DNA from: a virus
Strand: one strand, 5' to 3'
Length of the DNA stretch: 38,947 nucleotides
IMG/VR virus record: IMGVR_UViG_3300017598_000261
Coordinates: 1-38,947 of that record
Both the position numbers and the translations under genes were made by a program. Below are positions 1 through 38,947 of the stretch, in pieces. The notes under the pieces were generated by a model. It was not told the origin of the DNA. It saw nothing but the letters and a program-made list of their open reading frames with translations, and searched no databases. Each line of letters begins with the position of its first letter. The first letter of the stretch is position 1.

Positions 1-121
1 TAGACCAACAGACGGAGGAACTCAGATTCAAGTTTACTATGGAGAAGACACAAGTAATCTCTATATATGGAACACTGTTAATAAGACATGGGAAACAGTC
101 TAGACTTGTGATATAATACCA
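1..121. repeat. Terminal direct overlap, copy 1 (identical to 38827-38947). Indicates a circular assembly or terminally redundant genome of 38,826 unique bp.
   Basis: The string tagaccaacagacgg...cttgtgatataatacca is present at both window ends, 121/121 identical by eye. Confidence 0.95.
2..103 (+). CDS. 3' fragment (duplicate copy) of the 87-aa gene annotated at 38666-38929.
   Basis: Translates RPTDGGTQIQVYYGEDTSNLYIWNTVNKTWETV*, identical to the C-terminus of ORF 38666-38929. It lies inside the terminal overlap. Confidence 0.9.
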   Translation, partial: RPTDGGTQIQVYYGEDTSNLYIWNTVNKTWETV

Positions 122-162
122 ATAGGATAAAGTACATCCACTCTTTTAGGGGTGGTTTTTTT
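107..162 (+). promoter_or_regulatory. Late cassette copy 1: extended -10 promoter, -10-like TAGGAT, hairpin, T7 tract.
   Basis: TGTGATATAAT 107-117 with no -35 match. TAGGAT 123-128. Stem CCACTCT 138-144 / GGGGTGG 149-155. T7 156-162. ATG at 163 follows directly. Confidence 0.7.
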
Positions 163-1080
163 ATGGCAGTTAATCAAAACATGGAATTTCCAGTACATGC
201 AGAGAGCGGAACAGCTCGACCAGGCGACAATACTAATATATATGATCGTGGTGCTTGGGGTTCTTCTACACCTGGTTCAACAGCACAACCAACCCCACAA
301 ACATCGAAGTATGCACCAACAGGAGCTCAATCAGCTAGTGCTCAACAATCTGGATATAATAACCCAACAGCAGTAAATCAAAGTGATAAATCTTTTGGCA
401 CAGATGCAGAACAGTTCATGATTGAACCATTTATGCAACCATTTGATTATGGACAACAGAGAGCAGAGGGAGCAGATTTTAGAGATAGATTTACAGGTTT
501 TCTAGAGGGTCAAGAAACAGCACAGCAAGTTAGAGATAGATTCGCAAACCGCTATGGTTATGATGATCAACAAGAAAACTACTTAAGAACTAAAGAGAGC
601 GCAGAAGATGTTATGTCTTCTATTCGTGGATTACCAGATCAAATACAAAGTCGTGCAAGCGATACTGTAATGACAGCGGGTCAGGTAGCTAATATTCAAA
701 ATCAAGAAGTCGGTGATTTAATGAAAACCTATACTCAATTAGGTGAGCTTAATGAGAGACAAGGCAGACGCTTGGCTATGACTGAGCAAAACATGAATCA
801 AGCCGCTCAACTAGAAATGGCACAACAACAGAAGATGATGACACCTTGGTTGCAGGAATACCAAGATAAAAACATTATGCAAGCTCGTGAATATAGTGGG
901 TGGACATTCGCATCTCAATTAGAATTAAATAGACTAGTAGCTAATCAGCAAGCAGGTTTTAACTGGACAAACGCAGAGTCAAATAGAGCTCATGATTTAG
1001 CAATGCAAGAGAATGCATTTCAAAACTCTTTAGAATACATGGATAAACAAAACGAATTAGCAGACCAATTCTGGGGATAA
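163..1080 (+). CDS. Hypothetical Q/N-rich protein, first gene of a putative internal-virion/ejection-protein operon.
   Basis: 305-aa ORF starting immediately after the cassette. Tightly packed with the next gene (stop 1080, next ATG 1082). No recognisable motif. Confidence 0.7.
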   Translation: MAVNQNMEFPVHAESGTARPGDNTNIYDRGAWGSSTPGSTAQPTPQTSKYAPTGAQSASAQQSGYNNPTAVNQSDKSFGTDAEQFMIEPFMQPFDYGQQRAEGADFRDRFTGFLEGQETAQQVRDRFANRYGYDDQQENYLRTKESAEDVMSSIRGLPDQIQSRASDTVMTAGQVANIQNQEVGDLMKTYTQLGELNERQGRRLAMTEQNMNQAAQLEMAQQQKMMTPWLQEYQDKNIMQAREYSGWTFASQLELNRLVANQQAGFNWTNAESNRAHDLAMQENAFQNSLEYMDKQNELADQFWG

Positions 1081-2869: not shown

Positions 2870-5057
2870 TTTTTTAGACCCCAACCAAGTAAACGAGTTT
2901 AAGGTTAAAGCTAAAGCCTCAGGTAGATCCTATGGCGAAACACAAGCATATATAAACAATAAACAACGTGAGCAAATGTCTCAGCAGAAGATGGGTCTTG
3001 ATATTCAAAAGCAACAAGTTGAGGGTATGAAAGTACAGCGAGATTTATTAAATTTACAAAGTGGATCAGTTGGGTCAAGAGATCTTCCAGCAGCTAAAGC
3101 AACTGAATTGTCAGATATTAAAAACTCAATTGAATTACTAGATAACTTAAGTGAAACAGTATCTACTAGTGGAGAGTTTGGACAAATTAGGGGTAGAATC
3201 GGAATGATAAACCCTCTAGACACGGGAGCTAAAACAGTTCAAGCACAAACACTTCAAGCAGCCCAAATCATAGGTAGAGCTTTAGAGGGTGGTAAACTAG
3301 CAGAAGGCGATATTGCAAGATATCAAAAGATGTTACCGCAGACAACAGATAGCTCAAAAGTAGCACAAAACAAAATAGATTTATTAAAAAGCACTTTAGA
3401 GGCTCAATACAAAGGAAAGCAAGAGGGATTATCCTCAGCTGGATTTGATGTAGGAGAACAACTAGGAGTGGAATCAGAACAAGAACCAGAAACACCACAA
3501 GCATTTAATATGCTGGGTGAGGTAGCAAAAAAAGGCGACTTAATCAGAAATAACGAAACAGGAGATCTTAGTCATTATGGAATGGTAGATCAAAGACCAG
3601 CAGTATTTAAAACTACCAGTGATGGTGGTGACGTAGATGGTGGATTAGTGCAGTGGCTTAGTGATTCGGAGTTTCTCCCTATTGCAGGCAGTGTAGTTGG
3701 TAGTATTCTCGGTGGTACTGGAAGCGGTATAGCATCGCTAGGACTTGGAACTGCAGCAGGCGGCATAGCTGGTGGAGTAGCTGGTGCTACTATTGGTAAA
3801 AGCATGCAACAAGGCTTAAGGGAGTTATTAAATCCAGAAGAACAAGATTTAAGCGATATGGCTCAAGCGGTTGTGATTGAGGGTGTTACAGACGGAATAC
3901 TAGGTGGGGCAATGTTTGGTGTTGGTGCAGTAGCTAAGCCAGCAATAAAAGGTGTGGCTGGTAAAGTTGGACTTAAAATACTACTTGGAGAAGGTGCAGA
4001 AACAGCTGTTAAACAGATGGGTAAAGAAGCCGTATCTGAAACAGCAGAGGCTGGAGTAAAAACAACTGTTAAAGAGGGAGTAGAAGAAGGATTTAATAAA
4101 AAAACCAGAGATTTGGTTGCTAGAGGATTAGAAATAAACCCCAAAGCAGAACAAAAAGCATATGCTAATAAAACTGGTGGTAGAGACATAGTTGCCGATA
4201 TAATGGAGAGGTATGGAATACCAAAGCCAGGTGGCAAGGAGTTACAAGAAGTAGCTCAGAAAGACTTAAAAGCATCTTCTGCAAAACTAACAAATATACT
4301 TAAAGGAAAAACAGCAAAAACAGCAGATGTAATAGCTGATTTGGAAAAAATACAGTATAAAACAATGACTGAAGGGGCGGAGTTCAAAGCAGGATTAGAA
4401 CCAGCTAGTAACCTTTTAGATAAATATATAACAGAAATTAGAAGTGCTGGCGATGAAATACCATTGCAAGAATTAAACAGCATTAAACTAAGACTACAAA
4501 AAGCATTCCCAGTGGGAAGTGGTGTAACAAAATCATCAACAAAACTAGTAGAGCAAGAATCAGCCACAGTTGTTAAAGAGTTTATAGAAAAATTCCATCC
4601 AGAAATTGAAGGAACAAATAGAGCAAAACAATTATCATACATGGCTATGGAGATTGGTGAAAAACTAAATCAAAAGAAAGCAAAGTCATTCTGGCAATTT
4701 GGAGACCTTCCACTAGGAGTTATTAACCCACCTCTGTTGATAGGTAAAAAAGCATTTGACGCATTTGGTACAGCATTTAGCGAACCACTAACACAAGCAA
4801 AAATGCTAAATAGTGCCTTACAGATGGCTTCAGCTAATGGCAATAAACAGGGTGTAAGAAATACTCTAAGATTTGCAAGTAAACTAGGTATAAGCTTTGG
4901 AGTATCTCCCAATGCAGTCAGCAAGGGTGTACAAGGTGCAGTATCTGGAGCAGGTGCTAGTGCGGTGTCAAATAGTATGGCAGAACCACAACCAGGGTTA
5001 GATTTAGAACAACCAGAACAACCTCAGGATGTACAACCAGGGTTTATGTACCGCTAG
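2856..5057 (+). CDS. Large virion protein with Gly/Ala-rich hydrophobic (glycine-zipper-like) segments. Either tape-measure-like or an internal ejection protein.
   Basis: The track ORF starts at 2805. I prefer ATG 2856 (MSAYNF...), which gives only a 14-nt overlap with the previous gene. Segments GSVVGSILGGTGSGIASLGLGTAAGGIAGGVAGATIG and GILGGAMFGVGAVA look membrane-inserting. Confidence 0.6.
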   Translation: MSAYNFLDPNQVNEFKVKAKASGRSYGETQAYINNKQREQMSQQKMGLDIQKQQVEGMKVQRDLLNLQSGSVGSRDLPAAKATELSDIKNSIELLDNLSETVSTSGEFGQIRGRIGMINPLDTGAKTVQAQTLQAAQIIGRALEGGKLAEGDIARYQKMLPQTTDSSKVAQNKIDLLKSTLEAQYKGKQEGLSSAGFDVGEQLGVESEQEPETPQAFNMLGEVAKKGDLIRNNETGDLSHYGMVDQRPAVFKTTSDGGDVDGGLVQWLSDSEFLPIAGSVVGSILGGTGSGIASLGLGTAAGGIAGGVAGATIGKSMQQGLRELLNPEEQDLSDMAQAVVIEGVTDGILGGAMFGVGAVAKPAIKGVAGKVGLKILLGEGAETAVKQMGKEAVSETAEAGVKTTVKEGVEEGFNKKTRDLVARGLEINPKAEQKAYANKTGGRDIVADIMERYGIPKPGGKELQEVAQKDLKASSAKLTNILKGKTAKTADVIADLEKIQYKTMTEGAEFKAGLEPASNLLDKYITEIRSAGDEIPLQELNSIKLRLQKAFPVGSGVTKSSTKLVEQESATVVKEFIEKFHPEIEGTNRAKQLSYMAMEIGEKLNQKKAKSFWQFGDLPLGVINPPLLIGKKAFDAFGTAFSEPLTQAKMLNSALQMASANGNKQGVRNTLRFASKLGISFGVSPNAVSKGVQGAVSGAGASAVSNSMAEPQPGLDLEQPEQPQDVQPGFMYR

Positions 5058-5184: not shown

Positions 5185-5245
5185 TGTGATATAATGGCAA
5201 GTATAGGATCAAACACACATCCACCTCTAACAGGGTGGTTTTTTT
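5185..5245 (+). promoter_or_regulatory. Late cassette copy 2: extended -10 promoter, TAGGAT, hairpin, T7.
   Basis: TGTGATATAAT 5185-5195. TAGGAT 5204-5209. Stem CCACC 5221-5225 / GGTGG 5234-5238. T7 5239-5245. Here an AAAGGAA Shine-Dalgarno and ATG 5262 follow. Confidence 0.7.
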
Positions 5246-5261
5246 ATACATAAAGGAATAT

Positions 5262-5723
5262 ATGCCAAATCCAATGTCACCCGAAATAATGCAAGCAATG
5301 AAAAGAAGGGATGGTGGACAAACACCACCCCCAGATGCGCCTATTTCACAACCAGTGCAACCAATGCCACAGGGCGAGATGACTCAAGCTAGTGGACCAG
5401 CTGGAGCAGCTACACCACAAGCACCAAAGATGCCGAAGTTTGAACCACAAGATCGTCAAGACCTCATTACCGTTGCTTTAATAGAACAGCTCAAGAATGA
5501 TGGTAAATTAGTCAAAGAACAGGGAAAAGCACCAGTTGGAGCACCACAAACTCCACCAGCACCACAACAACCAGCACCAGCACCACAGGGACAAGCTATG
5601 GGTGGTGGAAGCTTTAGCATGTCATCAGGTTTTGAACAGCCTATGCCAGTCAATCAAATGCAGTCTAATTATGGAAATGGAATGGGTAAGGATTATAGCG
5701 GTTTATCAGGTTATGGGAGATAA
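5262..5723 (+). CDS. Hypothetical P/Q/G-rich low-complexity protein.
   Basis: The track ORF begins at GTG 5235 inside the hairpin. ATG 5262 is preceded by AAAGGAA at proper spacing. Confidence 0.65.
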   Translation: MPNPMSPEIMQAMKRRDGGQTPPPDAPISQPVQPMPQGEMTQASGPAGAATPQAPKMPKFEPQDRQDLITVALIEQLKNDGKLVKEQGKAPVGAPQTPPAPQQPAPAPQGQAMGGGSFSMSSGFEQPMPVNQMQSNYGNGMGKDYSGLSGYGR

Positions 5724-13810: not shown

Positions 13811-13940
13811 CTAACTTTGTCCTTACCCATCAGTAAATCGAAGTTAGACTTTTCCACCTTGTGCTACCCTCCGATGTACAGGGTGGAGAAAACGAATATT
13901 ATCTTGTGCAAAAACCCATGCTCGCCCGTGGGTTTCTTGT
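13811..13940 (+). ncRNA. Candidate structured small RNA (three stem-loops, the last terminator-like).
   Basis: Stem 1: CTAACTT 13811-13817 / AAGTTAG 13841-13847. Stem 2: about 15 bp, 13850-13864 / 13876-13892. Stem 3: AAACCCATG 13912-13920 / CGTGGGTTT 13927-13935, followed by CTTGTT. No ORF. Confidence 0.35.
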
Positions 13941-13956: not shown

Positions 13957-14029
13957 GCCTCTATAGCTCAGCTGGAAGAGCAACAATTTTGTAAATTGTA
14001 GGTCAAAGGTTCGATTCCTTTTAGAGGCT
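13957..14029 (+). tRNA. tRNA-Thr (anticodon UGU).
   Basis: Hand-folded cloverleaf. Acceptor GCCTCTA/TAGAGGC (7 bp), D stem GCTC/GAGC, anticodon stem ACAAT/ATTGT with loop TTTGTAA, variable AGGTC, T stem AAAGG/CCTTT with loop TTCGATT, discriminator T. No encoded CCA. Confidence 0.9.
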
Positions 14030-14053
14030 CATGTTCGTATCAGAAAGATCTAC

Positions 14054-19181: not shown

Positions 19182-19367
19182 ATGAACTCACACAACAAAT
19201 CAATACTAAAAGAAAAACGCAACAAAGAAATCTACAAGAACTTTTTAGCAGGTAATGGATACTCTACCATTGCTAGAGAATATGGCATATCTAAACAAAG
19301 AATTATGTTTATTGTTAAGAGAGAAGAAAAGCATAATCTAGTGGTTGACGCTAAGCTAAAAGAGTAG
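19182..19367 (+). CDS. Small helix-turn-helix DNA-binding protein.
   Basis: GYSTIAREYGISKQRIMFIVKR is a typical HTH (sigma region 4 / resolvase-type). 61 aa. Last gene of the small early operon. Confidence 0.6.
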   Translation: MNSHNKSILKEKRNKEIYKNFLAGNGYSTIAREYGISKQRIMFIVKREEKHNLVVDAKLKE

Positions 19368-22226: not shown

Positions 22227-22456
22227 TTGGCACACTCATAACAGCAATAGTATTTTATTTTATAGGCAGATACTCCCACACTAATGAGATAGAGCAGAAA
22301 GTGATCGAGATGAAGCACAAGTTAAAGAAAAAACCAAAAGCTGGAGTAATACCATTCAAAACACAAGAAGATTTTGAGTATGAAAAGAGTGGTGATAAAG
22401 CTCTAGATGATGAGTGGAATAGACCAGGTGGTATAGGGGACTTAGTAAAATCATGA
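22223..22456 (+). CDS. Small membrane-anchored protein.
   Basis: GTG start overlapping the previous stop. N-terminal hydrophobic stretch IGTLITAIVFYFIG. Confidence 0.45.
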   Translation: MIGTLITAIVFYFIGRYSHTNEIEQKVIEMKHKLKKKPKAGVIPFKTQEDFEYEKSGDKALDDEWNRPGGIGDLVKS

Positions 22457-22779
22457 ACATAACTAACAAATGCCCTAAGTGTGATGAGATTACAGATAAA
22501 TACATGACTATAGGTGGTATAAAAATGGCTTGTGATTGTAGTAATTGCTTTAAAAGTAGAAAGCCAATGGGTAAGCCATATGAGTTTACATCAGATATGA
22601 TAAGAGAAGGTAGAAAACAATTTAAAAACGAACTATACCAACCATATAGGGAAGGAAACTTTAGTAAAGAATATAGAGATGCTAACCCAGAGATATCAAG
22701 AGGTATGGTAAAAGCAGGTGTAATAACACAACAACAACACAAGAACGCTAAGAACGTATGGAAAGGTGATGTGGGTTAG
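22453..22779 (+). CDS. Zinc-ribbon protein, last gene before the first late-type promoter.
   Basis: CPKC-N16-CDCSNC at the N-terminus. 108 aa. Ends 4 nt before TGTGATATAAT at 22783. Confidence 0.55.
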   Translation: MNITNKCPKCDEITDKYMTIGGIKMACDCSNCFKSRKPMGKPYEFTSDMIREGRKQFKNELYQPYREGNFSKEYRDANPEISRGMVKAGVITQQQHKNAKNVWKGDVG

Positions 22780-22782
22780 AAG

Positions 22783-22793
22783 TGTGATATAAT
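22783..22793 (+). promoter_or_regulatory. Late-type extended -10 promoter, leaderless configuration.
   Basis: TGTGATATAAT, with ATG 22800 lying 6 nt after the TATAAT. No SD possible. Confidence 0.6.
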
Positions 22794-22799
22794 ATACCT

Positions 22800-23036
22800 A
22801 TGAATAAACCACAAACCCCCCCTAAATATTCATTACAACAACTCCAGGAATATATAGCCCTGACAAAACATTTCACAGAAAACATCGAACAGGTATATGT
22901 AACCAAAGAGGTTATAGAATGGTTCGACGAACAACGCACTCAAGTAGCTAAAAACTTAAACATCCCAACAACAAAGAATTACAAAGCACCTGTATATATG
23001 GGTGTAGAGTTAGTTGTAAAGGTAGATGTTAAATGA
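22800..23036 (+). CDS. Hypothetical protein (predicted leaderless mRNA).
   Basis: 78-aa ORF whose ATG sits at the predicted transcription start. Confidence 0.55.
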   Translation: MNKPQTPPKYSLQQLQEYIALTKHFTENIEQVYVTKEVIEWFDEQRTQVAKNLNIPTTKNYKAPVYMGVELVVKVDVK

Positions 23037-23269
23037 TGTCAAGTATTACCCTCGGAGAATTAGCAGAACTTCACAAGAACGTTAAAACATTATCACAACA
23101 ACCAATGACTATTAACGATTTTTGGTCAATGGAAACAAATAAAATATGGCTCAATTCTTCTTTATGGGAAAAATTAAAGATAAATATAAGTAGGATGTTA
23201 CGAGGTAATAAGCCTTACAATATAGAGTTTAAAGAAGAGCTAGATAAACTTAGGAAAGAATCAAAATGA
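23033..23269 (+). CDS. Hypothetical protein.
   Basis: 78-aa ORF with ATGA overlaps on both sides. Confidence 0.55.
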   Translation: MMSSITLGELAELHKNVKTLSQQPMTINDFWSMETNKIWLNSSLWEKLKINISRMLRGNKPYNIEFKEELDKLRKESK

Positions 23270-23517
23270 AAGCATTAAACGACTACTTACTCTTAAGGGT
23301 TAAAGAACCAAAAGATAAAACAGTTTCAGGCATCATAGTTAAACAAGACCCAGTCAATTACTTTAAGGGTAAAGTATTGTCAGTAGGTGAGAAGCTTAAC
23401 AAAGACATGCTAGGTAAATCAGTGTACTTCAATTCAAACGCTACAAGAATATCAATAAGAGAAGAAGAAGATGTATTAGTAGTTATTAAAGCAGAACACG
23501 CACTGCTTGAGGAATAA
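23266..23517 (+). CDS. GroES-like co-chaperonin (Hsp10 fold).
   Basis: LNDYLLLRVKEPKDKTVSGIIVKQ...FKGKVLSVGEKL...LGKSVYFN...EEDVLVVIKAEHALLE parallels GroES (L.DRV.V...E...K..GGI......G.V.AVG....GD.V.F......E..L....DILA). Confidence 0.55.
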   Translation: MKALNDYLLLRVKEPKDKTVSGIIVKQDPVNYFKGKVLSVGEKLNKDMLGKSVYFNSNATRISIREEEDVLVVIKAEHALLEE

Positions 23518-24332: not shown

Positions 24333-25816
24333 ATGCAAGATCAAACAAAAATAATCTGGACACCACACGAAGGACCACAGACTAACTCTCTTAAAAGAAC
24401 AGAGTTTGAGACGTTGTATGGGGGATAGGTGCTAGAGGCGGTGGTAAAACAGACGCTGGTCTTGCCTGGCTTATGCGTGAGGTACACAACCCCAACTTAA
24501 GAGCTTTAGTACTAAGACGTAATAGCGAAGATCTAAAGGATTGGATAGATAGAGCAACACTACTATACACCAAGCTAGGAGCAATCAAACGCGGTAACCC
24601 ACCAGAGTTTATATTTCCATCAGGTGCAATATTTAGAACAGGACATCTCAAAGACGACCAAGCATACACTAAATATCAAGGTCATGAGTATCACAGAGTC
24701 TTAATTGAAGAGCTAACTCAAATAGCAGAGGAGAGACAGTATCTTAGGTTGTTATCATCATGTAGGTCAACAGTTCCAGGTTTAGAACCAAGGGTTTTCC
24801 TAACAACTAATCCAGGTGGGAGAGGTCATCAATGGGTTAAGAAGAGATACATAGACCCACAAGAACCAGGTACTACTATCTGGCATCACACCGATCTACC
24901 AGATGGCTCAAGAGTATCTAAGTCTAGAGTGTTTATACAAGCCACAATGGATGATAATCCCACTCTTATGACTAATGACCCTTCATATGTAGCTAATATT
25001 GAATCATTAAAGGAAAACGACTATGAAACTTACATGGCATGGAGGTTTGGTGATTGGGATAGATTCGCAGGTCAGGTATTTAGTGAGTTTAGTAGAGCTA
25101 AACATGTTATATCTCCAGTAGTACCAAAGAAGGGAACACATTATCTTTGGATGGATTGGGGCTATAGTGATCATCATGAGTCAGCATTTAGTGCTTATCT
25201 ATCAACAGTGGTAAAGAGCAAGACACCAGATGGACAATCATTTCATCAAGTAATAACATATCAAGAGTTTTGTGGTAATCGTAAAGATCCAGAGGAATGG
25301 GCTAGAATAATCTATAGAAGTTGTAGCGAGATGGGTATAAAACCTAAACTATGTATAGCAGACCCAGCTATGGTTGGATCTAAAGCAGAAACATCACAAC
25401 TACCTGGCAACTTAATGGTTAATGAGTGGAAGCGTCTTAATGATGGAGAAAACTGGCTTAACATGATTAAAGGTAATAACGCTAGAACTGGTAGAGTAGG
25501 TGGTGTAGCAGTAGTACACAAGTGGCTTAGTAACCCACACACAATACCATACTGGCAAATAACCAGCACCTGTAAACACTTGATAAGAACACTTCCTATG
25601 CTAGTATATGATGAGCACAATGTGGAAGATGTAGACACTGGAATGGAAGATCACCCCTACGATGCCTGTAGATATGGACTTATGCACGTCAAGTTTGTAG
25701 CAGTTAAACCAGGATCATATTCTGCTAGGAATGAAGATAAGGTAAAATACCTTAGCAGAGATGAAAGAGGACTGCCAACAATAAATCCGAGTGAATTCTT
25801 TGGTAGTATTAGTTAG
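24333..25816 (+). CDS. terL: Terminase large subunit, interrupted by a -1 frame change at a G5 run (24420-24424).
   Basis: Walker A GARGGGKT (24428-24451) lies upstream of the first ATG (24473) of the long ORF, and no start codon exists in that frame after TGA 24407. A 31-codon ORF from ATG 24333 (MQDQTKIIWTPHEGPQTNSLKRTEFETLYGG*) ends at TAG 24426-24428. The frames join through the GGGGG run. Walker B-like VLIEEL. Positioned before the portal. Confidence 0.75.
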
Positions 25817-25856
25817 TCAAGTAGAGACAACATGTGTCATCGCAAAGTACAGAATT

Positions 25857-26111
25857 ATGAGTATAAAAACACAATCAATCAAAAGTGTATTAAAGAAGGA
25901 TGGGATAATACCCAATGAGATATCCATATTATTTGTGTCTAGTGATGAGAGTAGAGCAGTCCATTGTTTGAACTGTGGAAAGTTTCTTTTATATAGTCAA
26001 CATAGAATACTAGCTGTGGTGGAAGATGATTTATCACAAGTCATGAACACATCTCCATTTACTATTCAATGTCAAAAGTGTGGTAATATCTATAAGTTGA
26101 ATGTGATATAA
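25857..26111 (+). CDS. Zinc-ribbon protein (CxxC...CxxC), loosely Com-like.
   Basis: HCLNCGKFLLYS...TIQCQKCGNIYKL. ATG 25857 is preferred over the GTG 25791 extension, which overlaps terL. The stop codon lies inside the -10 of the next cassette. Confidence 0.45.
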   Translation: MSIKTQSIKSVLKKDGIIPNEISILFVSSDESRAVHCLNCGKFLLYSQHRILAVVEDDLSQVMNTSPFTIQCQKCGNIYKLNVI

Positions 26112-26158
26112 TGACGATAAGGATAAACTACATCCAGTCTTTTAGGGCTGGTTTTTTT
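26102..26158 (+). promoter_or_regulatory. Late cassette copy 3: extended -10 promoter, AAGGAT, hairpin (compensatory variant), T7.
   Basis: TGTGATATAAT 26102-26112. TAAGGAT 26118-26124. Stem CCAGTCT 26134-26140 / GGGCTGG 26145-26151. T7 26152-26158. ATG 26161. Confidence 0.7.
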
Positions 26159-28053: not shown

Positions 28054-28064
28054 TGTGATATAAT
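28054..28064 (+). promoter_or_regulatory. Late-type extended -10 promoter, leaderless or near-leaderless configuration.
   Basis: TGTGATATAAT starts one nt after the portal stop. ATG 28073 is 8 nt after the TATAAT. Confidence 0.55.
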
Positions 28065-28072
28065 AACCACAT

Positions 28073-28750
28073 ATGACAAACCAAAACGCCTCCGACGCCT
28101 TTGACAAGCTCGACAACGATAAAAGAGAAGCATATAAGCAGGAGGTTAAACAAGAAGCTATTCAAGAAGCAAAGAACGCTCTAGTTTCTAGCCTCACAGA
28201 TGATAAAGAGAAATTCTCATGGGAAAGTAGGGGTAAAAAACAACCTGATAATTATAGTGAAATGTTCGCAGAGAGTGATAGACGTGCAGATGCTAAGATT
28301 GAAGCATATAAAAAAGAAGTTGAAAATAGCAGAGTAGCAGAACAAGAAGCAAGAACTAAGCGTGAAGAAGACAAGAGACAACAGGATCTAAAATCAATGG
28401 AGGATAGACGTAAGAGTTTTGATAGCGACTGGTATAGTTTAATGGAACAAGGCAAGATGCCAAAGATGGCTGATGATATTAAAGAGATGGTAAACAAGGG
28501 TCAAAAACTCACACAAGAACAGATAGATAATGATGAAGGCTTAGTGGCTCGTAAGAAACTAATGAATACTGTACAACAATCAGGCAAGAGCACTAAGGTT
28601 GCATTTTATGAAGACTATGAAAAGTTACCAGCAGGAGCAAAAGCACCCGTATTAGGTGGCAGGCCTTCAACACCAGCATCTAAAAAGAGTAAAGATGATT
28701 ACACATACGATGAGATAAAAGCCAAGAGACGAGAGATGTTTGGTTTTTAG
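28073..28750 (+). CDS. Scaffolding protein (by composition and position).
   Basis: 225 aa, highly charged K/E/D-rich helical sequence between portal and capsid genes. Confidence 0.55.
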   Translation: MTNQNASDAFDKLDNDKREAYKQEVKQEAIQEAKNALVSSLTDDKEKFSWESRGKKQPDNYSEMFAESDRRADAKIEAYKKEVENSRVAEQEARTKREEDKRQQDLKSMEDRRKSFDSDWYSLMEQGKMPKMADDIKEMVNKGQKLTQEQIDNDEGLVARKKLMNTVQQSGKSTKVAFYEDYEKLPAGAKAPVLGGRPSTPASKKSKDDYTYDEIKAKRREMFGF

Positions 28751-28755
28751 GAAAG

Positions 28756-28812
28756 TATGATATAATACAAATTAGGATTAAAGACATCCACCCTTTACGG
28801 GGTGGTTTTTTT
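28756..28812 (+). promoter_or_regulatory. Late cassette copy 4: extended -10 promoter, TAGGAT, hairpin, T7.
   Basis: TATGATATAAT 28756-28766. TAGGAT 28773-28778. Stem CCACCC 28788-28793 / GGGTGG 28800-28805. T7 28806-28812. An out-of-frame ATG at 28813 opens a 28-codon uORF. Confidence 0.7.
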
Positions 28813-28843
28813 ATGTCCAAATACAAATTATTTGAAAGGAAAT

Positions 28844-29962
28844 ATGGCAGATGGATCATTAACACCTTCCCGCACAGCGGTAGGTTCCAACGTTTATAAT
28901 TTTTCTACAGCAAGAGCAGCCGCTACTGTTGTCGATGGAATTTTGAACTATCCAATGTTGGCTTCTCGTTTACTTTATAACGGTAAACAATTTAGTGGTG
29001 ATGGACGTGGTGAACAACCAACCATCATAAAAGATATTAAGATTTCTGGAAGATCACAATTCCAATGGTTTGAAGGTTTAGATACCCTCAATTCCAGTGC
29101 AGAGAATGTAGTGATACAGCTTCAGTTTAATGACGCTCACGCTTCTATGCCTATGGTAGAAATCATGACTGACTCATTCGCAAGAGAAGGCGATGGAGAA
29201 GATGTCGATTACCCAGCATTCGAATACGAAGATGCCCTTAACGAGACTGTAGAAGGTCTTTCATTGGCACTTTTTGATGCTACTCCAGGAAGTGACCAAC
29301 CTCTTTCCTTGGAAGAAATAGTTGATGATGGTACTAACCTCGCAACTTATGGTGGTCAAACAAGAGCAAGCTATGACAGCTTAGATGCAACAGTAACCGC
29401 TTCTGGTGGTGCCATGACTCTAGCTAAACTAGCAACTCTAAAATCTACAATTAGCGACAGTGGTCCAAAAGAGAACCCAACACTCATTTGTACTAATGAC
29501 ACAATTGCAGACCTCTATGAACAATTCCTAACACCAGTTGTTAGATACAATCAACAATCACTATCTATTAGTGGTATGTATCCAACCGCATCTGATGCTT
29601 CAGGAGTCGACATGGGATTTGGTGGAGTAAACACTTACAGTGGTATTCCAATCATTAGAGATAAACGCTCAACAGCAGGTGTTCTTTACATGTTGAATGA
29701 AAACTACATCCACTGGGCAGGTAGAACAAGAGTTCCTAAATCATTTAAGGAATTCATCTCACCTGTTAAGCTAGGTAAGGGTAAAGTAGTAGAAGGTCAA
29801 GCCTCACAAGGTCCAACCAAATACCACGGATTCTTCTATCAAGCAAAAGACATAATGCCAACTAAAGCAGGTATTATCTCTAGATTCTACTTATTTGGTC
29901 AGCTATGGTCAGATCAGCCAAGAAGAAACGGTAAACTAACAGGAATTACTTCTATAGCTTAA
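28844..29962 (+). CDS. Major capsid protein (by position and expression signals).
   Basis: ATG 28844 is preceded by GAAAGGAAAT. The track start GTG 28802 lies inside the hairpin. 372 aa, follows the scaffold gene. Own promoter cassette and a strong terminator downstream of the operon. Confidence 0.6.
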   Translation: MADGSLTPSRTAVGSNVYNFSTARAAATVVDGILNYPMLASRLLYNGKQFSGDGRGEQPTIIKDIKISGRSQFQWFEGLDTLNSSAENVVIQLQFNDAHASMPMVEIMTDSFAREGDGEDVDYPAFEYEDALNETVEGLSLALFDATPGSDQPLSLEEIVDDGTNLATYGGQTRASYDSLDATVTASGGAMTLAKLATLKSTISDSGPKENPTLICTNDTIADLYEQFLTPVVRYNQQSLSISGMYPTASDASGVDMGFGGVNTYSGIPIIRDKRSTAGVLYMLNENYIHWAGRTRVPKSFKEFISPVKLGKGKVVEGQASQGPTKYHGFFYQAKDIMPTKAGIISRFYLFGQLWSDQPRRNGKLTGITSIA

Positions 29963-30298: not shown

Positions 30299-30315
30299 AG
30301 CTTAAACTATAACTA

Positions 30316-30342
30316 AGCCCCTTCTAACGAGGGGGCTTTTTT
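30316..30342 (+). terminator. Intrinsic terminator after the capsid operon (normal order: terminator, then promoter).
   Basis: AGCCCC 30316-30321 / GGGGCT 30332-30337, followed by a T-run to 30342. Confidence 0.8.
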
Positions 30343-30344
30343 AG

Positions 30345-30353
30345 TGGTATAAT
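30345..30353 (+). promoter_or_regulatory. Late-type extended -10 promoter, leaderless configuration.
   Basis: TGGTATAAT. ATG 30360 is 6 nt after the TATAAT. Confidence 0.6.
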
Positions 30354-30359
30354 ACATAC

Positions 30360-30611
30360 ATGGATATAATAGACATCAATAAAGAAATAGAGCGTGATAA
30401 TAAAAAAGACGTTCTAATATTCAATCCACTAAACAAAGACTTTATTTGGAAGTATGATGGTAAACCATACACCATACCCTCAAAAGAGAATAAAAAGTAT
30501 CCAACATACCTAGCTAATCATTTAGGGAAGCATTTAATAGATGCCTACATGGATACTAAGGGTGAGAACTATGAAATGTCTAAAGCACGAAGGATAATCT
30601 TCAATGATTGA
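30360..30611 (+). CDS. Hypothetical protein (predicted leaderless). Shares a motif with 31401-31928.
   Basis: 83 aa. FNPLNKDFIWKYDGKPYTIP...YPTYLANHLGKHLIDAYM. Confidence 0.55.
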   Translation: MDIIDINKEIERDNKKDVLIFNPLNKDFIWKYDGKPYTIPSKENKKYPTYLANHLGKHLIDAYMDTKGENYEMSKARRIIFND

Positions 30612-31115: not shown

Positions 31116-31126
31116 TGTGGTATAAT
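31116..31126 (+). promoter_or_regulatory. Late-type extended -10 promoter, leaderless configuration.
   Basis: TGTGGTATAAT. ATG 31133 is 6 nt after the TATAAT. Confidence 0.55.
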
Positions 31127-31132
31127 ACATAT

Positions 31133-31408
31133 ATGCGTACAAACAAAGACGGTTCCCCAGATAAAAGATATAAGAAAAACAAACAGGTAAAGGTAGATGA
31201 AGAACTCAAGGAAGAGTTTGAAGAAACTATAATTGATGAACCAGTTGTATATAGCACAGAACTAGACGCTAACGAACTCCACACAAAACTACTCAAAGAC
31301 AACAACCTCAAACTAGATTTTGATGTGTTAGAGGGTACGATTACAACTAAACACGGAATTATTAAGTTGGAGAAACCAACACTAGTTATAAAGGCTTCAT
31401 ATGTCTAA
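31133..31408 (+). CDS. Hypothetical protein (predicted leaderless).
   Basis: The track start 31100 would put the promoter inside the ORF and overlap the previous gene. ATG 31133 (MRTNKDGSPD...) matches the leaderless geometry of the other copies. Confidence 0.5.
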   Translation: MRTNKDGSPDKRYKKNKQVKVDEELKEEFEETIIDEPVVYSTELDANELHTKLLKDNNLKLDFDVLEGTITTKHGIIKLEKPTLVIKASYV

Positions 31409-32130: not shown

Positions 32131-32186
32131 GTGATATAATAACCATAGGATTAAATAACATCCACTCCTTCGGGGGTGGTTTTTTT
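32131..32186 (+). promoter_or_regulatory. Late cassette copy 5: extended -10 promoter, TAGGAT, hairpin (UUCG loop), T7.
   Basis: GTGATATAAT 32131-32140. TAGGAT 32146-32151. Stem CCACTCC 32162-32168, loop TTCG, GGGGTGG 32173-32179. T7 32180-32186. ATG 32187. Confidence 0.7.
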
Positions 32187-32360
32187 ATGTCAATAAATAG
32201 CACCGACTACAACAACCACTTAATACAAGCCGATAGCTCCACAGTACTGGCTAACAGCACAATAGTACTAGCTAACGGTTTTGACTCAACACAAGGTGAT
32301 TATATTAGTGGTAAGCTATCAATCAAAACAACAACATTTACAGAACAGGAAGCATCATGA
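32187..32360 (+). CDS. Hypothetical 57-aa protein (not in track).
   Basis: The ATG directly abuts the T7 tract, as in copies 1 and 3. MSINSTDYNNHLIQADSSTVLANSTIVLANGFDSTQGDYISGKLSIKTTTFTEQEAS*. ATGA overlap with the next gene. Confidence 0.5.
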   Translation: MSINSTDYNNHLIQADSSTVLANSTIVLANGFDSTQGDYISGKLSIKTTTFTEQEAS

Positions 32361-37900: not shown

Positions 37901-38682
37901 AAACATATAATCACTCAATTGTAGTTCCCGAAGGTGGTGTAAATGCTATGTTTGGCACACAAGATGTATTGTTTATCGTAGCAGGCTATACAGGCGAAAT
38001 ACTAGTTTACTCTGGAGGAGGAGCTGCACAAAAGTTCCATAAAGTACCAAAGGTTACCAGAGATAAGTTTGTAGAGATAGCACCTGGTGGAATGGCTATG
38101 TGGAGAACCAATATACATCTTAGTATGAGTCTTGGCACTGATTCAGAAGAAATACAAAAAGGTGTTTACTCAATAGGCACAGCACAAAGAAACTACCCAA
38201 TATCACTGGGGTTTGATTATCCTACATCACTAGGAGAACAGACATCTAGTGAAGTAAAAACAAGTATGGTATTCCCATCAGGACAAGATCTATATGTGGG
38301 ATGGCAAAACCAAAACTCATACGGTATAGACAAAATATCAGTCACAAACGACCCATACGAAGATGGCACTGTAGAAATGCTTATTAGTGACCTTGGAGAG
38401 ATTAGTGATGATGATTATCCACTCATATTAAGAGCAGATTTTGAAGCCCTTAAAGATGGTGAGAGTGTAAGAGTTAAGTACAAAGCAGATAGAGAAGATG
38501 ACTGGCACACTGGAGAATATGAAGATACGGTCGGAGCTAAAGAAGTTAGATATGTTATATCCCAAAGAATGAAAGAGATTCAAGCATCGTGTGATTTAAA
38601 AACAACCAGTAGCACATCACCTACACTACTAGGAATTACTCTTGAGGTAGAGAAGGAGCAAAGCAGTGGTAGGAGAACGTGA
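34915..38682 (+). CDS. Large tail structural protein with a LamG/concanavalin-like domain and a glycine-rich region.
   Basis: 1255 aa. LamG-type C-terminal strands ...AIGADFDGSGNPQNYYDGLIDDVRIWNDQRTTSEL. Gly-rich GGGGAGGNGS...GGSGTGGGGGSYGSAG...GSGGGGGGK...GGQGGGSGGS. Confidence 0.7.
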   Translation: MPKQIGSQTSFASGISFSTKEGLQNSYAFGRAIDHRSDPKKVVLNPRAEIDSGTIVKDLPMWGARACSRTFSYGNTGNIYQKEIDWELVHTAPDSTGNGMAYFTGDRALYYAQDTTLGRMLDACTEAKFYDDFMGSDSGEPLNTKSLNLELSSSQYAYVTDTSSLSITSDLTIEAYTKFESLPDATLNEEYVIVSKWTEQSDQRSYKMDVIGSVDFFGDGRDGALSITGNTTEDPIDANCTGTKGSTILTVSNEHASFSSIQPGDKVGIYQTRGTGAGQRQLVDVVSYSSGTLNLLEPLTFSPVHSATVSDANKAQVRVIKQHTTVVIGAGFSYYSKAWDGLKGGYLRWYANAGSTINGSVNGSGRGFRGGRFYDDSYEGADDKVTGESGESQAGYFLPFGHTFGDDTSLTQSPAGVVNGGGGAGGNGSREHDGGSGTGGGGGSYGSAGTNGGFTNTQYRTGLVAGGTGVVYGDNLLSSIHLGSGGGGGGKVKDNDVTGVKRGGYGGASLGIFSTTVSFGAGGYVVSEGTDGDVNTILEGQALLTSGGQGGGSGGSILYLLQTGNIGTSRTLARGGYGSIPLAGDAVGGNGGNGRIAVGYLTSVTGTSLPGYSKYQDNNLGAGDGYTLRLHISSTGANSDIYAWDITGKINTSTWRRYQIKWNDLLSTAEAFIGGNTLGTKKGSLTSIYNSTSSTAIGADFDGSGNPQNYYDGLIDDVRIWNDQRTTSELVNHNNKPMIGTEANLVAYYEFEDDLTDSQTNVTANNMTGVNTPTYSVDVPFSGLSSRRDQDQIYDGSGQLYTLPVSIDETATARQTFVPDKDPQTSVMVEIDTIGTGDWTVTVHDSLNRAVATQTVVNGDLNTGFYEFIFDDVWRPILGASYHFHLTSTVADGKVVTSTVSDLETARFRTHYQFLVSDKYHPITPHLDFMVIGNERYLAKFQAGDVYEPHKLVFPSEYRVRSLAYWREFVAIGCWKGDEITDFDDGRVFFWDGINKTYNHSIVVPEGGVNAMFGTQDVLFIVAGYTGEILVYSGGGAAQKFHKVPKVTRDKFVEIAPGGMAMWRTNIHLSMSLGTDSEEIQKGVYSIGTAQRNYPISLGFDYPTSLGEQTSSEVKTSMVFPSGQDLYVGWQNQNSYGIDKISVTNDPYEDGTVEMLISDLGEISDDDYPLILRADFEALKDGESVRVKYKADREDDWHTGEYEDTVGAKEVRYVISQRMKEIQASCDLKTTSSTSPTLLGITLEVEKEQSSGRRT

Positions 38683-38929
38683 TAACACCAATATATTTGA
38701 GAAGAAGTTAGAAGAACAAGCACCTACTACCATAAGGACGCTTCATTCTAGTGATTTGTTGCCTGATATCATTAAACAACGTAATATTGCAGAGGGACAC
38801 ATAATATTTAGGGGTCTATTATCAGATAGACCAACAGACGGAGGAACTCAGATTCAAGTTTACTATGGAGAAGACACAAGTAATCTCTATATATGGAACA
38901 CTGTTAATAAGACATGGGAAACAGTCTAG
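38666..38929 (+). CDS. Small tail-fibre-associated protein.
   Basis: GTG start overlapping the previous gene's end. The C-terminus GTQIQVYYGEDTSNLYIWNTVNKTWETV resembles the common fibre-tip motif (..Y.A.DT..LY.W.G..W..V). Confidence 0.5.
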   Translation: MVGERDNTNIFEKKLEEQAPTTIRTLHSSDLLPDIIKQRNIAEGHIIFRGLLSDRPTDGGTQIQVYYGEDTSNLYIWNTVNKTWETV

Positions 38930-38947
38930 ACTTGTGATATAATACCA
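38827..38947. repeat. Terminal direct overlap, copy 2 (identical to 1-121).
   Basis: Same 121-nt string as the window start. Confidence 0.95.
38933..38943 (+). promoter_or_regulatory. Duplicate copy (terminal overlap) of the cassette-1 promoter.
   Basis: TGTGATATAAT, identical to 107-117. Confidence 0.7.

Follow-up and report, generated by a model that had tools for sequence, protein, structure and literature searches.

The window, by which we mean the whole 38,947-nt stretch analysed here, is a circularly closed contig in which bases 38827-38947 duplicate bases 1-121; the phage genome is ~38.8 kb and is not T4-like. Five copies of a compact cassette, described in the original prediction and all recovered where it had placed them, punctuate the + strand, and a pattern search for ACATCCA-hairpin-TGG-T7 returned five matches on that strand only, against 0 expected from 100 shuffles. 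The five cassettes and their parts are as follows.

107-117, + strand: cassette 1, promoter TGTGATATAAT, extended -10 with hexamer 112-117 and no -35
125-139, + strand: cassette 1, predicted helix P1, made up of box GGAU (125-128), loop AAAGUAC and AUCC (136-139)
138-162, + strand: cassette 1, intrinsic terminator, with stem-loop 138-155 and U7 156-162
5185-5245, + strand: cassette 2, promoter 5185-5195, box GGAU 5206-5209, AUCC 5219-5222
5221-5245, + strand: cassette 2, terminator, with stem-loop 5221-5238 and U7 5239-5245
26102-26158, + strand: cassette 3, 5' of the portal gene, promoter 26102-26112, box GGAU 26121-26124, AUCC 26132-26135
26134-26158, + strand: cassette 3, terminator, with stem-loop 26134-26151 and U7 26152-26158
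28756-28812, + strand: cassette 4, 5' of the major capsid gene, promoter 28756-28766, box GGAU 28775-28778, AUCC 28786-28789
28788-28812, + strand: cassette 4, terminator, with stem-loop 28788-28805 and U7 28806-28812
32131-32186, + strand: cassette 5, 5' of the tail-fibre operon, promoter 32131-32140, box GGAU 32148-32151, AUCC 32160-32163
32162-32186, + strand: cassette 5, terminator, with stem-loop 32162-32179 and U7 32180-32186

The genes on either side adjoin the cassettes closely. Because of the circular closure, the gene 5' of copy 1 is the one at 38666-38929, with its stop at 101-103, while a 305-codon gene begins with the ATG at 163, directly after the U7. The gene after cassette 2 begins at 5262 and has the Shine-Dalgarno sequence AAAGGAA ahead of it. 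At cassette 3 the preceding ORF ends at a TAA within TATAAT, and the portal ATG lies at 26161. The ATG at 32187, behind cassette 5, begins a 57-codon ORF, which shares ATGA with the start of a 519-codon tail-fibre gene. The distance from T-run to ATG, predicted as 0-2 nt for copies 1, 3 and 5, measures 0, 2 and 0 nt. For copy 4 an upstream ORF had been proposed; the ATG at 28813 does open one of 28 codons, but this ORF is not conserved in relatives, and the capsid gene itself starts at 28844 behind the Shine-Dalgarno sequence GAAAGGAAAT.

Promoters and terminators of the late module

The exact string TGATATAAT is confined to the + strand, where it marks the five cassettes, two further promoters (22785 and 28056) and position 38935, the last being the duplicate of copy 1. 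Extended -10 promoters of this kind are predicted to be of a constitutive type, served by host RNA polymerase with its primary sigma factor, and their transcription starts are likewise predicted positions. A second promoter class, for which leaderless mRNA is predicted, was found at four places, and a sixth strong terminator lies next to one of them.

22783-22802, + strand: second-class promoter, TGTGATATAAT, then 6 nt, then ATG
28054-28075: further leaderless-type promoter, scaffold gene
30345-30362: further leaderless-type promoter
31118-31135: further leaderless-type promoter
30300-30344, + strand: sixth terminator, with no promoter of its own, stem 30315-30338, followed by the leaderless-type promoter at 30345-30353

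The six strong + strand terminators of the window thus comprise the five in the cassettes and one that also has a box, GCUUA at 30300-30304, which forms a 5-bp P1 helix with UAAGC (30314-30318) at the stem foot (shuffle p ~0.002). Here, at 30315-30353, the genome uses the normal order of terminator and then promoter, as the original prediction had pointed out; the order in the cassettes, gene stop, promoter, hairpin and next gene, which it had singled out as unusual, is real and conserved.

In each cassette the terminator, termed P2, consists of a 6-7 bp stem rich in G+C and a U7 tract after it, set in the leader between promoter and first gene. The stem-loop lies entirely 19-25 nt 3' of the -10 hexamer, and is hence transcribed from the cassette's own promoter. 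The T-run is exactly seven T in every copy, as had been noted, and the TAGGAT reported 5-8 nt past TATAAT (AAGGAT in copy 3) is likewise present in the window copies. The claim that the hairpin is conserved as a structure holds well beyond the compensatory swap in copy 3 (CCAC/GTGG to CCAG/CTGG), which is real: across the aligned copies 97% of cells pair, against only 21-50% in controls in which the partner strand was slid, and 31 cells carry changes on both sides, a number reached in 0 of 500 shuffles. We also considered, and discarded, a Shine-Dalgarno sequence sequestered within the stem's 3' strand, since the relevant position flips freely between G-C and C-G.

Distribution of the cassette among related phages

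A covariance-model search of relatives, which the original prediction had called for, was carried out with covariance model R1 and gave 46 copies, each on the coding strand, from the window together with ~30 related contigs of metagenomic phages. Cassette positions are kept in these relatives, 5' of portal, major capsid and tail genes, and the cassettes are confined to the late module. A terminator lies at most 80 nt upstream in 43/52 capsid genes and 36/71 portal genes, and in none of 27 scaffold genes or 44 terminase genes. Leaderless-type promoters are found in relatives upstream of 16/27 scaffold genes and 14/71 portal genes, and 5' of the portal gene of distant relatives the cassette and the leaderless promoter alternate at a single site. 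In distant relatives the box and terminator are also found behind ordinary -35/-10 promoters. A scan with the 750-residue protein returned no relatives, so that cassettes 1 and 2 could not be traced in other genomes.

Wider searches returned little. Megablast of 10 kb against GenBank phages gave no match, a portal-based scan of GTDB genomes gave no prophage, and no Rfam family matches the cassette. A loose scan of viral contigs for TATAAT..AGGAT..ATCCA yielded ~120 matches, of which one (L111, the same contig as L002) had the hairpin and U-run, and the rest were set aside as chance. The matches of a GTDB pattern scan were also mostly chance, with one convincing full copy carried by a mobile element in a Woesebacteria genome bin. 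The nearest GenBank portal is that of a TM7 phage; this copy and the portal are two weak hints that the hosts are possibly among the CPR bacteria (Patescibacteria).

The relatives also separate two arrangements of translation start. Early genes and the capsid gene use Shine-Dalgarno sequences of the AAAGGAG type; in portal-type and tail-type cassettes no Shine-Dalgarno sequence is present, and 0-17 nt separate the U-run from the ATG. This closeness, together with the replacement of the cassette by a leaderless promoter 5' of the portal gene in distant relatives, which points to unusual translation initiation, would suit a hairpin that serves as a 5' mRNA stabiliser and a U-tract that acts as a translation enhancer in place of a Shine-Dalgarno sequence (through S1, for example), with termination secondary. 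We regard this as distinctly unlikely, because capsid-type cassettes, whose own Shine-Dalgarno sequence lies 22-40 nt further on, still keep box, hairpin and U-run, because a 5' stabiliser must sit within a few nucleotides of the 5' end and 13-20 nt precede the hairpin here, and because neither a competing box nor a U-run of 6-9 nt would be required for stabilisation; the covariation described below is also left unexplained. A related idea, in which the hairpin brings AGGA close to the ATG as a split Shine-Dalgarno sequence, was rejected: the spacing would still be ~17 nt, several lineages have a box unlike a Shine-Dalgarno sequence, and the capsid copies have a Shine-Dalgarno sequence of their own.

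Covariation between box and terminator foot

The pairing of GGAT with ATCC, mentioned in the original prediction as a weak alternative helix, proved to be the key conserved feature of the cassette. In every case a box of 3-5 nt is complementary to the terminator stem at its 5' foot, the helix sharing 2-4 nt with that stem, and box and foot covary. In the close family GGAU/AUCC has been replaced by the compensatory GGUU/AACC, and the wider clade has GGAC/GUCC, GGC/GCC, AGGU/ACCU, GAGU/ACUC, AGGA/UCCU, AGCG/CGCU, GCC/GGC and GAGC/GCUC; in one contig (L225) three different box/foot pairs occur within one phage, all with the loop AUUUUA. For 112 distinct terminators of the clade, pairing between the upstream region and its own foot averages 3.21 bp, compared with 2.40 +/- 0.10 bp when the feet are permuted (p <= 2e-4), an effect absent from 31 terminators of unrelated viral contigs, a control set drawn from the chance matches of the loose viral-contig scan. 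In a gap-free alignment anchored on the loop motif alone, 93.8% of cells are paired, versus 63.5% in shuffles, with both-side changes in all 4 pairs (17 cells), which 0 of 500 shuffles reach. Judged from these alignments, the covariation of the box, with its conserved core GGA(U), and the foot is a base-pairing signature and not a sigma-2 recognition signature. A palindromic DNA operator, GGAT...ATCC, was rejected as well, since a single genome can contain different pairs and the spacing varies between 4 and 12 nt.

The box starts at least 6 nt past the -10 hexamer in 41 of the 42 cassettes scored, which places it within the promoter's own RNA. The helix formed by box and foot, P1, is the fold predicted for the nascent leader, with a probability of 0.62-0.99; in cassette 1, where the CC of AUCC is common to P1 and the terminator stem, the nascent RNA is predicted to adopt it as its minimum-free-energy fold, at a probability of 0.97. 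For the complete leader the terminator fold is predicted to be favoured by 2.9-3.8 kcal/mol.

These results bear directly on the interpretation originally offered for the cassettes, a switch like that of lambda Q, in which TAGGAT, at +1 to +6, would be a sigma-dependent pause element at which a Q-like protein loads and renders the polymerase terminator-resistant. The order of promoter, -10-like hexamer and terminator does match PR'-qut-tR', nAnnnT is kept at the place of the box in 34/45 cassettes, and small zinc-ribbon proteins with no assigned function are encoded at 22453-22779 and 25791-26111. Against it, TAnnnT fits only 19 of 45 distinct cassettes, the essential A being T or C in 9, and in the wider clade the box reads AGCG, GCC, GAG or GGG and covaries with the terminator foot. 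The distance from box to -10 hexamer varies widely in relatives, from 6 to >20 nt, whereas that from box to terminator is always 4-12 nt, and one terminator without a promoter has a box too. Nothing conserved that might be a Q-binding element was found upstream of TGnTATAAT among the nine late promoters of the window, no Q-family domain was present among the 25 of 28 matched families listed in a Pfam scan of 49 ORFs, and scans of individual small ORFs gave no Q or antitermination family. A switch of this type is, in our view, very unlikely.

The same drift bears on the possibility that the cassettes are mainly recombination sites for module shuffling, a role proposed for the promoter-early stem-loops of T4-like phages; this would be compatible with other readings. 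As five repeats of ~55 bp, ~75% identical and placed at module borders, with the cassette and leaderless promoter alternating at one site in relatives, they have the outward form of such sites. Their sequence drifts while structure and pairing are kept, however, which points to RNA function, and not DNA identity, as the target of selection, and no cassette-bounded rearrangement was seen among the loci compared, which are partial contigs, leaving shuffling as a main role scarcely probable.

A candidate leader attenuator ahead of the late operons

Since transcripts from these promoters must cross a terminator ~40 nt downstream, some form of attenuation or antitermination is implied. We put the chances as about even that every copy combines a promoter and a leader attenuator in compact form, with an antiterminator helix set against an intrinsic terminator. 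In such a scheme the extended -10 promoter would start an RNA that has the box, (A)GGAU in this phage, among its first nucleotides; AUCC would follow ~7 nt past the box, and its CC would also be the first two bases of the terminator stem, so that the leader has two mutually exclusive folds. P1 would form first, during RNA synthesis, leaving a shortened stem that stands two bases off the U-run and from which termination is not expected. P2, the full terminator, would be favoured thermodynamically by ~3 kcal/mol and would stop transcripts arriving from the upstream operon, thereby acting as an insulator and supplying them with a 3' hairpin. P1 would compete for exactly those base pairs whose closing releases the RNA, and a set fraction of polymerases would pass into the portal, capsid and tail operons, a fraction that a factor may raise. 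Start sites, 3' ends and read-through are all model predictions at this stage.

That P1 lowers termination we infer from the hairpin-invasion model of intrinsic termination; it may do so alone, or with a phage or host protein that stabilises P1 to time late expression. At 3-5 bp P1 is less stable than the terminator. Read-through transcripts from upstream contain the box as well, and the model alone does not separate the two kinds of transcript; moreover, a terminator could be leaky without a box, and the model does not give a selective reason for the competitor. A doubtful but more specific proposal is that box, loop and foot make up a self-contained terminator gate of a new kind, working either through protein-free escape of freshly started polymerases or through a hairpin that serves a new family of phage antiterminators. 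In the protein-free version, new polymerases that still hold sigma and lack Nus factors would escape, and those arriving from upstream would be stopped. Under both versions the gate would serve a large clade of uncultured phages, possibly with Patescibacteria as hosts, in timing and balancing the expression of capsid genes. A ribosome halted at the upstream stop and shielding the box was rejected as a general explanation, the stop being close enough in only ~10/42 cases, where it lies inside TATAAT.

The attenuator resembles several known systems in part. Classical attenuators with an antiterminator or preemptor helix include the trp and pyrBI leaders, the RAT elements of BglG-SacY and the pT181 repC leader, and there, as here, the 5' strand of the terminator can pair with an upstream segment in mutually exclusive helices. 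The cassette differs from these in its leader of ~40 nt and its competing helix of 3-5 bp, in being repeated ahead of each late operon of one phage, and in having no evident leader peptide (no leader ORF lies within the cassette leader), ligand-binding domain, tRNA site or antisense RNA. The put RNAs of the HK022 type are two-hairpin structures of ~70 nt that modify polymerase to pass distant terminators; in both cases a structured RNA just 3' of a phage promoter affects, or here would affect, termination without a phage protein, but the cassette RNA would compete locally with its own terminator. With the lambdoid PR'-qut-tR' region the cassettes share a late promoter followed by a terminator that has to be crossed for structural-gene expression, and the short terminated RNA predicted from them recalls lambda 6S RNA; unlike that region, they come in five copies and not one, have their terminator at ~+15 to +40 rather than ~+190, and show neither a Q homologue, a Q-binding element nor a conserved -10-like hexamer.

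Such ~40-nt RNAs could themselves be the product, as abundant small RNAs, each with a hairpin flanked by an A/U-rich stretch and a U-tail like an Hfq-type module, that act as decoys or regulators. Five strong promoters, each ~40 nt ahead of an efficient-looking terminator, and an A/U-rich stretch ahead of the hairpin would fit this function. The conserved single-stranded part is, however, just 3-5 nt long and varies between lineages and inside one phage, no conserved target-recognition seed is present, and the elements always lie directly 5' of structural genes that need expression, all of which makes this role highly improbable.

The promoter-early stem-loops (PeSLs) of T4-like phages (Arbiol et al. 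2010, PMC2839356; Comeau et al. 2014, PMC4122927) similarly recur between genes and combine a strong sigma-70-type promoter with a terminator stem-loop. A PeSL has its stem-loop upstream of the promoter, within it or immediately ahead of its start site (PMC2839356), so that the RNA made from a PeSL promoter does not contain the terminator, whereas the stem-loop of the cassette lies wholly within the promoter's own RNA. PeSLs are, in addition, early elements of the hyperplastic regions of T4-like myoviruses, where they are associated with insertions, deletions and exchanges, and no competing box has been described for them.

An unlikely variant of the gate, for which a precedent exists, has the P1 hairpin as the site of a specific phage or host RNA-binding antiterminator, in the manner of RAT/BglG-SacY or boxB/N, with cassettes shut early and opened late. 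Hairpins recognised by proteins typically have covarying stems and a conserved A/U-rich loop, and AUUUUA or AAUUUA loops recur across lineages with different stems; the restriction of cassettes to the late module agrees with it, and promoters of constitutive type without an activator site would need another layer for timing. The precedent is the Thermus phage P23-45, whose late promoters are of the extended -10 class, without -35 and read by host polymerase as here, and whose late expression is aided by read-through of intrinsic terminators with the antiterminator gp39 (PMC3351154). Gp39, however, acts on polymerase without an RNA site, no cis competitor helix is known there, and no gp39 homologue was identified in this phage. 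The five window copies resemble one another only loosely in their loops, no gate of this sort stands before late genes with leaderless promoters, the scaffold gene among them, and no RNA-binding or trans-acting protein for the cassettes was identified among the phage candidates checked. The zinc-ribbon ORF at 22453-22779 is kept in 36 loci, but has no Pfam or PHROG match, with the PDB giving weak VgrG-like matches only (E = 0.02), and its AlphaFold model is unreliable at a pLDDT of 45.7.

Returning to the attenuator itself, the cassettes would insulate and gate the late operons. Several late operons could in this way be controlled at ~55 bp each, with no sigma factor of the phage's own, no recognisable activator site and no Q-like protein: a constitutive promoter would be held in check by a terminator whose competitor is built in. 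Covariation this clean suffices to define a new cis-regulatory RNA motif, suitable for metagenome searches, and one that could also find use in synthetic biology as a minimal tunable terminator. To our knowledge, almost nothing is known of gene regulation in phages of CPR bacteria. Throughout a deep clade of uncultured phages the element is kept ahead of the gene for the major capsid protein.

Cassettes in the window and its relatives

All five proposed copies of the cassette, in which an extended -10 promoter is followed by a short box (TAGGAT), a hairpin and a run of T, were confirmed in the window sequence, where they precede the structural operons:

107-162, + strand: cassette 1, upstream of a 305-codon gene and a peptidase-domain gene
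5185-5245, + strand: cassette 2, upstream of a tail-fibre operon
26102-26158, + strand: cassette 3, upstream of the portal gene
28756-28812, + strand: cassette 4, upstream of the major capsid gene
32131-32186, + strand: cassette 5, upstream of more tail-fibre genes

The pattern ACATCCA, variable hairpin, TGG and T7 yields five matches against none expected, the exact string TGATATAAT occurs on the + strand only, and the T-run is exactly seven long in every copy. Further details of the original prediction also hold, namely the variants of copy 3 (AAGGAT and the CCAG/CTGG change), the ATG 0-2 nt past the T-run in copies 1, 3 and 5, and the conventional order of terminator, then promoter, at 30315-30353. 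The uORF proposed for copy 4 is present (28813-28899; 28 codons, starting right after the U-run and overlapping the capsid start) but is not conserved, its equivalents in relatives of cassette 4 having 1-14 codons or being absent.

Since the first 121 bases of the window (1-121) are identical to the last 121 (38827-38947), the contig either closes into a circle or is terminally redundant, its unit length being ~38.8 kb (about 38,826 bp); its G+C content is 33-40% and its + strand carries all genes. Cassettes account for five of the six convincing intrinsic terminators on this strand. No cassette lies at 9.4-24 kb, a region of replication and recombination genes (ERF, DnaB-like helicase, RusA, methylase, HNH endonucleases) with ordinary Shine-Dalgarno sequences and promoter-like sites of the -35/-10 type. 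A tRNA-Thr gene (anticodon TGT) at 13957-14030, in the early or middle region, has a hairpin (13912-13935) and a TTATATAAT motif on its 5' side, and a Cpn10/GroES-like gene is found at 23266-23517.

No GenBank phage is a close relative at the DNA level, the nearest by portal protein being a TM7 phage (24.6% identity). Searching IMG/VR and JGI metagenomes by portal protein recovered over 100 related contigs, whose portal identities range from 76% to ~23%, and a covariance model built from 14 copies (cut-off E <= 0.05) matched 46 cassettes, every one on the coding strand, across the window and some 30 contigs. The element is absent from the TM7 phage and from another distant GenBank phage. Because most relatives are partial contigs, cassettes 1 and 2 could be followed only within the window.

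Three weak hints point to Patescibacteria (CPR bacteria) as hosts: the TM7 phage has the nearest GenBank portal; GroES/GroEL-type genes are common to it and the window phage, with GroEL-type chaperonins encoded by TM7 phage MG269973 and by MW202566, which have the closest portals in GenBank; and a Woesebacteria genome bin holds a complete cassette:

L332 (MAG contig JASFHL010000007.1), 4513-4574, - strand: cassette scoring 47.6 bits with the covariance model

Its parts are TGTTATAAT, AGGAT, an ATCC that overlaps with the stem ACGC..GCGTGG, and a U-run; downstream of it come an ORF of 88 codons, another that is weakly Rep-like, and a large serine recombinase.

Pairing of the box with the foot of the terminator

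The hairpin (P2) is conserved as a structure, as had been proposed: in an alignment of 45 distinct copies, 97% of cells pair, with both-sided changes at 4 of 6 pairs (31 cells), values that none of 500 shuffles reaches, and with 21-50% pairing in slid-partner controls. Being fitted to the structure of the model, the alignment is biased towards pairing; the effect is so large, however, and stem variants are so numerous in the raw sequences, that sequence comparison leaves no doubt that the predicted hairpin is real. Its stem, loop and U-run of 6-9 nt are, by prediction, those of a strong intrinsic terminator.

The box was originally read as a -10-like element, yet TAnnnT fits only 19 of the 45 close-family copies, and the A of TAGGAT is replaced by T or C in nine. 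Invariant in the close family are GGA(U) and an (A)UCC just 5' of the stem. Two related contigs, L134 and L142, have GGUU/AACC in place of GGAU/AUCC, the former in one cassette beside two that have GGAU/AUCC. In more distant relatives the pair becomes GGAC/GUCC, GGC/GCC, AGGU/ACCU, GAGU/ACUC, AGGA/UCCU, AGCG/CGCU, GCC/GGC, GAGC/GCUC or GGG/CCC, and the three cassettes of a further contig, L225, each have a different pair but share one loop, AUUUUA.

Among 112 distinct clade terminators, pairing of the upstream region with its own foot averaged 3.21 bp against 2.40 +/- 0.10 bp with permuted feet (p <= 2e-4), and for non-canonical feet to 2.95 against 2.07 +/- 0.13, while 31 terminators of unrelated viral contigs showed no effect (1.10 vs 1.44 +/- 0.22). 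A gap-free alignment of 12 elements, chosen solely for a loop motif A[AT]TTTA abutting a terminator, had 93.8% of cells paired against 63.5% in shuffles and 33-48% in slid controls, with both-sided changes at 4/4 pairs (17 cells; 0/500 shuffles as high). Shuffles and permutations remove shared ancestry only in part; the many independent pair types and the differing pairs in single genomes, as read from the sequences, do not depend on it. On comparative grounds, then, the TAGGAT box makes up one side of a predicted helix (P1) and is not a -10-like element. That it might be a sequence-specific DNA half-site is excluded by the differing pairs inside one genome, and the P1 loop length of 4-12 nt argues against a rigid dimeric operator.

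The first 2-4 nt of the P2 stem also belong to the 3' strand of P1, so that the two helices cannot coexist. The box lies 4-12 nt from the terminator and 6 to >20 nt from the -10 hexamer, and since it starts at least 6 nt past that hexamer in 41 of 42 cassettes scored, it is predicted to fall within the promoter's own RNA. Distant relatives have box and terminator behind ordinary TTGACA-17-TATAAT promoters, and the promoterless terminator at 30315-30338 of the window has a 5-bp box, GCUUA/UAAGC.

L142 carries two cassettes in tandem (4324-4379 and 4390-4434), spaced by 66 nt and sharing the variant pair GGUU/AACC. In another contig, L136, a stretch of about 90 bp is tandemly duplicated (983-1060 and 1073-1150); each unit has a promoter-like site, TGTTAGAGT, and a CGGTC/GACCG terminator at which no box can be recognised. 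Gastranaerophilales / Melainabacteria MAGs contain a strongly conserved element, ...AAACACTAAAAGACCATTAGGATGCAGAAAACAATCCACTC..GAGTGGTTTTTTT, with the GGAU...AUCC-terminator layout of the cassettes (L257, L260, L274-L276, L279, L280 and about 15 more loci). Found repeatedly in many Gastranaerophilales genomes, this element resembles the 3' terminus of a conserved RNA or leader.

Promoters, translation starts and gene association

A second class of promoter in the window, in which ATG follows TGnTATAAT after 6-8 nt, should by prediction give leaderless mRNAs:

22783-22802: TGnTATAAT, then ATG
28054-28075: TGnTATAAT, then ATG
30345-30362: TGnTATAAT, then ATG
31118-31135: TGnTATAAT, then ATG

No conserved sequence was found upstream of the TG across the nine late promoters of the window. 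Portal- and tail-type cassettes place the ATG 0-17 nt past the U-run without a Shine-Dalgarno sequence; in capsid-type cassettes it lies 22-40 nt past the U-run, behind AAAGGAG-like sequences.

Elements upstream of four genes, counted over distinct upstream regions (terminator hairpin and U-run sought within 80 nt)
Major capsid: 52 regions; terminator hairpin and U-run in 43; leaderless-type promoter in 0
Portal: 71 regions; terminator hairpin and U-run in 36; leaderless-type promoter in 14
Scaffold: 27 regions; terminator hairpin and U-run in 0; leaderless-type promoter in 16
Terminase: 44 regions; terminator hairpin and U-run in 0; leaderless-type promoter in 2

These uneven counts indicate that the element is tied to particular genes, and old. 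Before the portal gene of some distant relatives a leaderless promoter stands in place of the cassette, which suggests that the cassette arose when a terminator was inserted between a leaderless-type promoter and its ATG, and makes Shine-Dalgarno-independent initiation a normal feature of these phages. In most copies the stop codon of the upstream gene is found within TATAAT or <=10 nt before the TG, so the terminator could not precede the promoter without lengthening the genome.

A predicted attenuator and its possible partners

When the nascent leader is folded up to the 3' strand of the terminator (ViennaRNA), P1 is the predicted structure, with energies of -2.0 to -2.9 kcal/mol in the window copies and probabilities of 0.62-0.99 across the eight tested; in the complete leader the full terminator is favoured by 2.9-3.8 kcal/mol. 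At 10 C this gap falls to as little as 1.0 kcal/mol for copies 1, 2 and 5 and is 3.3-3.6 kcal/mol for copies 3 and 4. Formation of P1 leaves a stem of 4-5 bp and two unpaired bases before the U-run. In the established hairpin-invasion picture, release of the transcript requires the lowest pairs of the stem to close in competition with the RNA-DNA hybrid; as a competitor for just these bases, P1 should reduce termination by more than so small a free energy implies.

Lambda PR'-qut-tR', the model for the original prediction of a Q-like switch, has the same order of promoter and terminator, but the cassette departs from it in the pause element, in the Q-binding element and in the Q protein, for which the Pfam families listed for 49 ORFs gave no match. 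The PeSLs of T4-like phages are likewise composites of promoter and terminator, although in them the stem-loop is placed inside the promoter or upstream of it (PMC2839356), and Thermus phage P23-45 has late promoters of the extended -10 class together with the antiterminator gp39 (PMC3351154), but no known cis element. Nearest in logic are classical attenuators, whose recognisable sensor has no identified counterpart in the cassette; Rfam holds no family matching the element. With all transcription predicted, the cassette is best read as a promoter joined to a minimal attenuator.

The conserved A/U-rich loop and covarying stems hint at a binding partner, for which any candidate in the window is speculative:

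19182-19367: 61-codon ORF, Mor/C-like HTH
22453-22779: zinc-ribbon protein
25791-26111: zinc-ribbon protein

The first resembles the C-terminal HTH found in late activators of the Mor/C family of phage Mu (Pfam Mor 1.9e-7; PHROG "late transcriptional activator"); upstream of the late promoters no matching dyad site was seen. The second, of 108 residues, combines a CxxC...CxC zinc ribbon at its N-terminus with a conserved QPYRxGxFSKE...SRGMVK motif; encoded upstream of the terminase gene and conserved in 36 related loci, it matches no family, and its AlphaFold model is unreliable (pLDDT 45.7).

In the mechanism that we propose, P2 would end transcripts arriving from the preceding operon, while the box would act as an antagonist built into the terminator, weakening it so that transcription could run on into genes that need high expression, the capsid gene above all. 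P1 may serve as a tuner by itself, or may be stabilised by a protein to time late expression.
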